A stretch of 5,541 nt of DNA, from the IMG/VR virus record IMGVR_UViG_2585427969_000012; one strand, given 5' to 3'. The notes beneath the pieces were generated by a model. That model ran no database searches and was not told where the DNA came from. It worked only from the letters and a program-made list of their open reading frames with translations. Positions 3,143 through 4,383 of this stretch are shown piece after piece. This DNA comes from a virus (Monodnaviria; Loebvirae; Hofneiviricota; Faserviricetes; Tubulavirales; Inoviridae). Position 1 is the first letter of the stretch. Every line of letters starts with the position of its first letter. Position numbers and translations under genes: made by a program.

Positions 3143-4383
3143 ATGAAAAAGATTTTACTCGCATTAACGCTACTATTTTCTTCATGTGCTTTCGCAGGGT
3201 CAGAGCTTGAATTAAATAAAGTCAAGCTACCGGAGGCTATTTCTCTTATTTACAGTGAGGTGCTTAAAGTCCCGTATATGCTAGATCCACAGCTTGTTAA
3301 TGATGAACGAATGATTACATTCAGGTTAACACCTGATATTGATGAACGGGAATTTGTAACCCGTTATCTTGGCAATATGAACATTCGAATATGGACGAAA
3401 AAGGGTGTTGATTTTATCGCGCCCTATACGCCGAAAGAGCCGGTTAAGCCACGTTATACATGGACTTATACGCCTCAGTACCGTTCTGTTGCCTACCTGT
3501 CTGATATTCTTGGCGGCTACGTTTCAGGCTCCTTCAATAACAGTGGAGCCGTGATTTCTGACGATTCGCTAAAAGGTTCATCAGGGGCAAGCAACTACAT
3601 CAATCGAACCGGTGATATTCTGGTTTATTATGGTACGAAAGAGGATATCGCCATCCTGAAAACACTGGTCACTTCGCTGGATACGATGAGTGATGAAGTG
3701 GTTGTTTCTGGTTATGTTTTTGAGGTTCAGACCTCGCAGTCTGACGGCTCCGGCATTCTTTTAGCGGCTAAAATTCTGTCTGATAAATTCAATATTTCAG
3801 TTGGTGCTGCCGGACTGGATAATTTTATCAATATTCGAACCGGCTCCATTGATGCCATTTTCAATCTGCTGAAAACCGACAGTCGTTTTACTGTTGTCAG
3901 TGCGCCGACTGCGGGTAAAAAATAATGCCTCAGCGTCTTTTTCAGTCGGCTCTGATGTGCCAGTACTGGGCAGTGTTACGGTGAATAACAATACGACAAC
4001 GCAATCCGTTGAATATCGTTCCAGCGGTTTTTGTTAACGTGACGCCATCAATCAAAAGTCGGACAATGGATCTCAAGATTCAGCAGCAGCTTTCCAACTT
4101 TGTGACCACTGAAACCGGCGTCAATAACTCGCCAACCCTTATCAAGCGTGATGTAACAACCGAAGTCAGCCTTGCAGATGGTGATATTATTTTACTTGGT
4201 GGCCTTGCTGAACAGAAAGACAGTAAGGCCAGTTCCGGCTGGAGCTTCTTCGGTTCCCGTACCAGTGAAAGCAACAAGACTGATATTATGGTGATGCTTC
4301 AGGTCAGAAAGGTTGACCGGAGCAGGGCGACGCCCCGCAGCGCCGCGAGGAGCGGTGAACTGTTCCGGGACAACCTGAACTGA
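3143..4383 (+). pseudogene. pIV-type secretin (phage export channel), disrupted by two +1 frame changes; segments 3143-3925 (frame 2), 3924-4034 (frame 3), 3985-4383 (frame 1)
   Basis: Sec-type signal peptide MKKILLALTLLFSSCAFA|GSE. Joining the three frames gives a continuous secretin-like sequence: ...VVSAPTAGK/NASASFSVGSDVPVLGSVTVNNNTTTQSVEYRSSGF/VNVTPSIKS...DGDIILLGGLAEQKDSKASSGWSFFGSRTSESNKTDIMVMLQVRKV. This follows the order of the Ff pIV C-terminal domain (…SISVGQNVPFITG…DGQTLLLGGLTDY…SGVPFLSKIP…SRSDSNEESTLYVLV). The frame breaks coincide with an A6 run (3917-3922) and a T5 run (4028-4032). Confidence 0.85.

Follow-up and report, generated by a model that had tools for sequence, protein, structure and literature searches.

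The 5,541-nucleotide stretch of DNA analysed here (virus record IMGVR_UViG_2585427969_000012, hereafter called the window) carries a phage secretin gene that is read in three successive frames. This raises the question of whether the gene has decayed, leaving a phage that is defective or that borrows the secretin of its host, whether it is switched on and off by slippage in two homopolymer runs, or whether the interruption arose when the DNA was sequenced, three possibilities that the first-pass annotation had listed side by side. The comparison with intact copies of the same element argues for the last one. The frame changes are very probably a sequencing or assembly artefact, a cause that I infer from the spectrum of the lesions, and the interrupted secretin as it had been described is most likely not a real feature.

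Judged by its sequence, the window spans the right half of a filamentous (Inovirus) prophage of the CUS-1/YpfPhi type, inserted at E. coli dif. Copies of this element in E. coli are 99.4–99.6% identical to the window (99.6% for strain GON1437), while the prophage copies of Y. pestis NCTC5923 show about 99.3–99.4% nucleotide identity over window positions 720–5277; the element is carried by 105 of 5426 complete E. coli genomes. With respect to CUS-1 (E. coli O18:K1:H7) and YpfPhi (CUS-2, Yersinia pestis), the window therefore represents the same element, from which it is set apart only by the 21 bases that it lacks and by a few lineage SNPs. Gene identities were taken from the ORF listing and by annotation transfer from the matching loci, and the resulting order (coat, g3/puvA, g6, Zot/pI, secretin, two small ORFs, then dif) matches that annotated for CUS-1/YpfPhi (Table 1). 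The role of puvA in CUS-1 has been described (PMC4266046). CUS-1/YpfPhi integrates at dif, restoring this site at the prophage 3' end, and it forms tandem arrays and free circles (PMC4266046). Going by position alone, the 82-aa and 65-aa ORFs are probably the homologues of YPO2280a and YPO2281, respectively.

Table 1. Features of the window, with the intact form of each interrupted gene.
Feature	Position	Strand	Remarks
Major coat protein gene, 3' end	1..47	+	Corresponds to locus L015 4814-5047 and locus L002 1651-1842 ('major capsid protein')
g3-like adsorption gene (puvA of CUS-1)	259..1815	+	Intact form 1563 bp, 520 aa, WP_000741236.1
g6-like gene (DUF2523)	1828..2115	+	Intact, 95 aa, PF10734
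Zot/pI assembly ATPase gene	2119..3143	+	Intact form 1026 bp, 341 aa; frameshifted here
pIV-type secretin gene	3143..4383	+	1241 bp here, frames 2, 3 and 1; intact form 1245 bp, 414 aa
82-aa ORF, no assigned function	4472..4720	+	Intact
65-aa ORF, no assigned function	4916..5112	+	Frame shifted by G loss at 5049
Chromosomal dif at prophage 3' end (attR)	5252..5277	+	26 bp, not 28
Host chromosomal flank	5278..5541		About 264 bp, non-coding; lies upstream of a LysR-family gene beyond the window

Two further observations concern the layout of such prophages. Directly 3' of the 82-aa ORF, an imperfect inverted repeat (TGTTTATTGGTG / CACGCATAAACA) surrounds a palindrome at 4705–4752. Its CGCATAA core is similar to the XerC arm of dif, and the repeat could be part of the inverted pair of XerC/XerD sites proposed for YpfPhi attP; a scan of positions 4700–5541 for inverted repeats returned nothing relevant to the secretin frame changes. 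In some E. coli drafts (loci L003 and L011), a second and different inovirus module, encoding a 344-aa Zot and a 420-aa secretin, adjoins the prophage, and two distinct filamentous prophages can thus sit side by side.

The phage that carries the secretin of the window is a known one, and the protein is an unremarkable pIV/secretin family member that involves no new biology. Like pIV of the Ff phages (M13/f1/fd), it has a C-terminal secretin domain. The likeness extends to the pI/pIV apparatus, as the gene lies directly downstream of Zot/pI, its start overlapping the Zot/pI stop at TAATG (3141–3145), and the N-terminus of the predicted product (MKKILLALTLLFSSCAFA/GSE) looks by eye like a Sec signal peptide. 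The Ff phages are nevertheless only distant sequence relatives and, unlike the phage of the window, which integrates at dif via the host XerCD, they do not integrate in this way.

The three-frame reading is present in the window as it had been reported, with ORFs at 3143–3925 (frame 2), 3894–4037 (frame 3) and 4009–4383 (frame 1), and so are the two homopolymer runs, A6 at 3917–3922 and T5 at 4028–4032. The pieces are co-linear with a single secretin, since positions 15–58 of the PF00263 profile are matched in the frame-3 piece (19.3 bits) and positions 61–138 in the frame-1 piece (48.2 bits); an intact homologue, with the same sequence as the window gene after repair, reaches 87.1 bits (gathering cut-off, 27.5). 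The idea that each run carries one extra base did not withstand alignment with the intact copies, which revealed losses of bases and a net change of −2, not +1, at each frame change. The A5/T4 state anticipated for an intact gene is refuted as well: the A6 run is found in 13 of 13 intact copies, and the T5 run in none. At the first lesion, 11 nt upstream of A6, two bases have been lost at 3905/3906, so that GCGCC[AC]GACT becomes GCGCCGACT; the missing bases are AC/CA in E. coli (GCGCCACGACT) and GC in Y. pestis (GCGCCGCGACT). The second frame change results from two 1-bp losses (GGTGTTTTGTTTAAC to GGTTTTTGTTAAC), that of a G at 4028, which joins T to TTTT and so creates the non-native T5 run, and that of a T at 4033, which shortens TTT to TT.

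The repair that had been suggested, removal of one base from each run, does restore a single frame of about the predicted length (412 aa, for an estimate of about 410), but it leaves wrong residues at both junctions, the true product being 414 aa long. Adding back the four missing bases yields a secretin of 414 aa that does not differ from WP_000722136.1, which is encoded on at least 1000 public contigs from E. coli, Salmonella and Klebsiella. Compared with either D8 or GON1437, the secretin gene of the window shows no substitution and four missing bases in three deletion events. An uninterrupted 1245-bp ORF is present in all 13 intact copies examined, in contrast to the interrupted copy of the window. 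Programmed ribosomal frameshifting was considered and rejected, since every intact homologue consists of one ORF, from which the window departs by deletions.

The lesions were then placed in the context of the whole window, using as a reference E. coli GON1437, the closest complete genome, which carries the prophage in a single copy with all genes intact and has the same host flank. The window differs from this reference by 3 substitutions and by 18 deletion events that remove 21 bases in all, and it has no extra base. Besides the three events in the secretin gene, there are six in g3, three in the coat-g3 spacer, one in Zot, two at the 65-aa ORF (one upstream, one within it), one in another intergenic region (which brings the intergenic total to five), one in the XerC arm of dif and one in the host flank. 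The six events in g3/puvA are all 1-bp losses (at 665, 784, 813, 1086, 1114 and 1282), and they split the gene. The Zot gene, which had been described as an intact gene of 972 bp, is in fact frameshifted by the reduction of GGG to GG at 3081, so that its ORF stops at 3090; its product matches the Pfam Zot family with 93 bits. The event upstream of the 65-aa ORF, a short way from it, is a G loss at 4894. In dif, which lies at the expected place, the XerC arm lacks GT (GGTGCGCATAA to GGCGCATAA), whereas the full 28-mer is present at all other loci; if this loss were real, chromosome dimer resolution would suffer. In the host flank, ATGTGGG is reduced to ATGGG at 5460, a loss of 2 bp that is private to the window. 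Host DNA accounts for some 290 bp of the window, and the case for lesions beyond the prophage rests on these two events, in dif and at 5460.

Independently of these lesions, the C-terminal part of g3 is present in the window as a 168-aa ORF (1309–1815). Many public drafts (67 index blocks) have a gene call for this ORF by itself, the N-terminal part of g3 being uncalled or different there. This suggests either real variation of the N-terminal domain or splitting of the gene by gene callers at an internal ATG start; none of the deletions of the window is found in the loci that carry the separate ORF. The idea that five apparently private C-to-T changes reflected DNA damage or deamination of single-stranded DNA was dropped, as four of the five turned out to be lineage SNPs upon comparison with GON1437.

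Twelve of the 18 deletion events shorten runs of 2–4 bases and the other six remove 1–2 bases outside runs, while none of the 21 runs of at least 5 nt in the window (A8, C6, T6, four A6 and others) is altered with respect to the reference. If indels are assumed to make up 10–30% of natural events, the probability of at least 18 indels among 21 events is between 1e-15 and 2e-7, and in the absence of any bias the probability that 18 out of 18 indels are deletions is 4e-6. The sequence context is also recurrent: the inner G of GGTGTTT is lost at two of the three occurrences of this motif (4028 and 5049), which, with the TG context, suggests a context-specific systematic base-calling error. The 2-bp losses at 5252 and 5460 likewise take TG/GT adjoining a G. 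Finally, the events are unevenly distributed. An 1799-bp segment (1283–3080) is free of deletions (P = 0.016 under uniformity), as compared to roughly one event per 210 bp in the rest of the window, and the source data were possibly of higher coverage or quality in this segment.

All 18 events are private to the window. None of them recurs at the 17 other E. coli and Y. pestis loci compared. Over the secretin span, the best match among the 5426 complete E. coli genomes is identical to the window except for the four gaps, and the deletion at 5460 is found in no complete E. coli genome that has the flank. The interrupted products behave in the same way, as the 260-aa secretin fragment and the 323-aa Zot are absent from an index of 153 billion gene positions and from a set of 15 billion proteins; the intact 341-aa Zot, for its part, is encoded on at least 1000 contigs from E. 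coli, Salmonella and Klebsiella. A 33-mer spanning the first lesion has no exact match in collections of viral genomes, species-representative genomes and metagenomes, and megablast gave no hit in a phage collection.

How do the biological explanations fare in the light of these data? A prophage that decays naturally is expected to accumulate mostly substitutions, to show insertions mixed with deletions and slippage in its longest runs, and to have lesions that are limited to the dispensable element and common to its relatives. Natural decay is disfavoured because the data from the window run opposite to each of these expectations. The prophage part has 18 deletion events for a single substitution, no insertion and no change in the long runs, and the secretin gene has three deletion events for no substitution at all. 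Lesions of the same type affect the XerC arm of dif, where a 2-bp loss would be selected against, and the host flank, where 2 bp are missing as well, and no other isolate shares any of them. Neither the inherited lesions nor the neutral substitution ratio of a decayed pseudogene are found, every lesion being private and the window having 3 substitutions for 18 indel events. The reading does have points in its favour: several morphogenesis genes are struck together, as in a dead prophage, and the separate call of the 168-aa C-terminal part of g3 in many assemblies points to some natural variation in the structure of this gene. Moreover, disruption of the secretion gene YPO2279 abolishes the production of YpfPhi particles (PMC4266046), so that a prophage with such lesions would be defective. 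All in all, it is unlikely that the window represents a defective remnant whose g3, Zot and secretin genes were truly frameshifted by deletions, and which can no longer assemble or export virions.

The related proposal that the gene is interrupted because the phage relies on a host secretin is equally unlikely, given a secretin gene devoid of substitutions and the similar lesions in dif and in the flank. It had been modelled on CTXphi, which is also a filamentous, dif-integrated phage with a Zot-family assembly protein (PMC4266046). CTXphi, however, has no secretin of its own and uses the host EpsD, while phages of the CUS-1/YpfPhi family encode theirs. Because this family both carries and needs its own secretin, the analogy with EpsD is unneeded. 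As for slipped-strand, phase-variable switching of the secretin at A6 and T5, the sole point that speaks for it is that the two runs fall in the zones where the reading frames overlap. The A6 run has the same length in each of the 13 intact copies, T5 is a non-native run that appeared when a G was lost, the two bases missing at the first lesion do not belong to any run, and no run of 5 nt or more is altered, which is not what a phase-variable locus looks like. Two independent switches in one gene would in addition make no sense. The constancy of A6 and the unaltered runs effectively exclude this mechanism, which I consider next to impossible.

A precedent for the pattern seen in the window is provided by another assembly of the same prophage, that of E. 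coli strain TUM14759 (RefSeq GCF_030389215.1). This strain has three tandem chromosomal copies at dif (NZ_CP128877.1 2520000-2549400, locus L017) as well as its own intact circular copy of 9565 bp (NZ_CP128883.1, locus L016), which was deposited as an 'untypable plasmid' and is probably the replicative form of the phage. Per 19 kb, the tandem copies depart from this circle by 65 deletions, 7 insertions and 18 substitutions. Nearly all deletions are of 1–2 bp, with one of 4 bp, and they occur about once per 265 bp. Nearly every gene of the tandem copies is flagged as 'frameshifted', GspD and Zot included, while the flanking host genes are intact. Rate and spectrum are alike in TUM14759 and in the window. 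The positions affected are different, and TUM14759 also has a minority of insertions and errors in long runs. The pattern in TUM14759 is presumed to reflect long-read consensus errors in a repeat that escaped short-read polishing.

The same resemblance could be read the other way, as the mark of a real mutational process, biased towards deletions, to which filamentous prophages at dif and the DNA next to them would be subject. Two independent assemblies, the window and TUM14759, do share a spectrum of mostly 1–2-bp deletions at about one per 300 bp, and the host genes that flank the TUM14759 copies are annotated as intact. The lesions of the window, however, reach into the host flank, and the pattern in TUM14759 coincides exactly with the presence of a three-copy tandem repeat plus a free circle, a classic situation for polishing failure. 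Moreover, no polymerase is known to produce deletions over substitutions in a ratio above 6:1 across non-repetitive DNA, which counts against such a process. It is very improbable; candidate causes would be error-prone rolling-circle synthesis from the integrated copy or Xer/EndoIII-mediated integration of single-stranded DNA. If the process did exist, chromosomal copies would be quickly inactivated and episomal copies would stay intact.

The explanation that best fits the data is that the window derives from a sequence of low accuracy with a bias towards deletions, its source most likely being either a long-read assembly that had received little or no polishing or a read consensus of low coverage. 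The secretin gene of the organism would then really be intact (1245 bp, 414 aa), the three-frame reading would stem from four bases dropped during sequencing or assembly, and 17 other bases would have been lost elsewhere in the window through the same process. The first-pass annotation was thus right to consider sequencing errors; the form that it gave them, one additional base in A6 and in T5, is to be replaced by deletions of 1–2 bases, in short runs and in non-run contexts, throughout the window. A point against this explanation is that errors in long homopolymers are classic for nanopore, 454 and Ion Torrent consensus sequences, and the window is free of them.

Should the frameshifts be real after all, the window would contain a defective CUS-1/YpfPhi prophage without virion export, a minor and already familiar event. 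If they are artefactual, as is very probable from the spectrum, they call for caution with a prophage that occurs in tandem arrays and as free circles: its public long-read assemblies may hold dense deletion errors that are called as pseudogenes, and claims that such a prophage is defective, or that it depends on a host secretin, need to be preceded by read-level checks when they are drawn from records of this kind.
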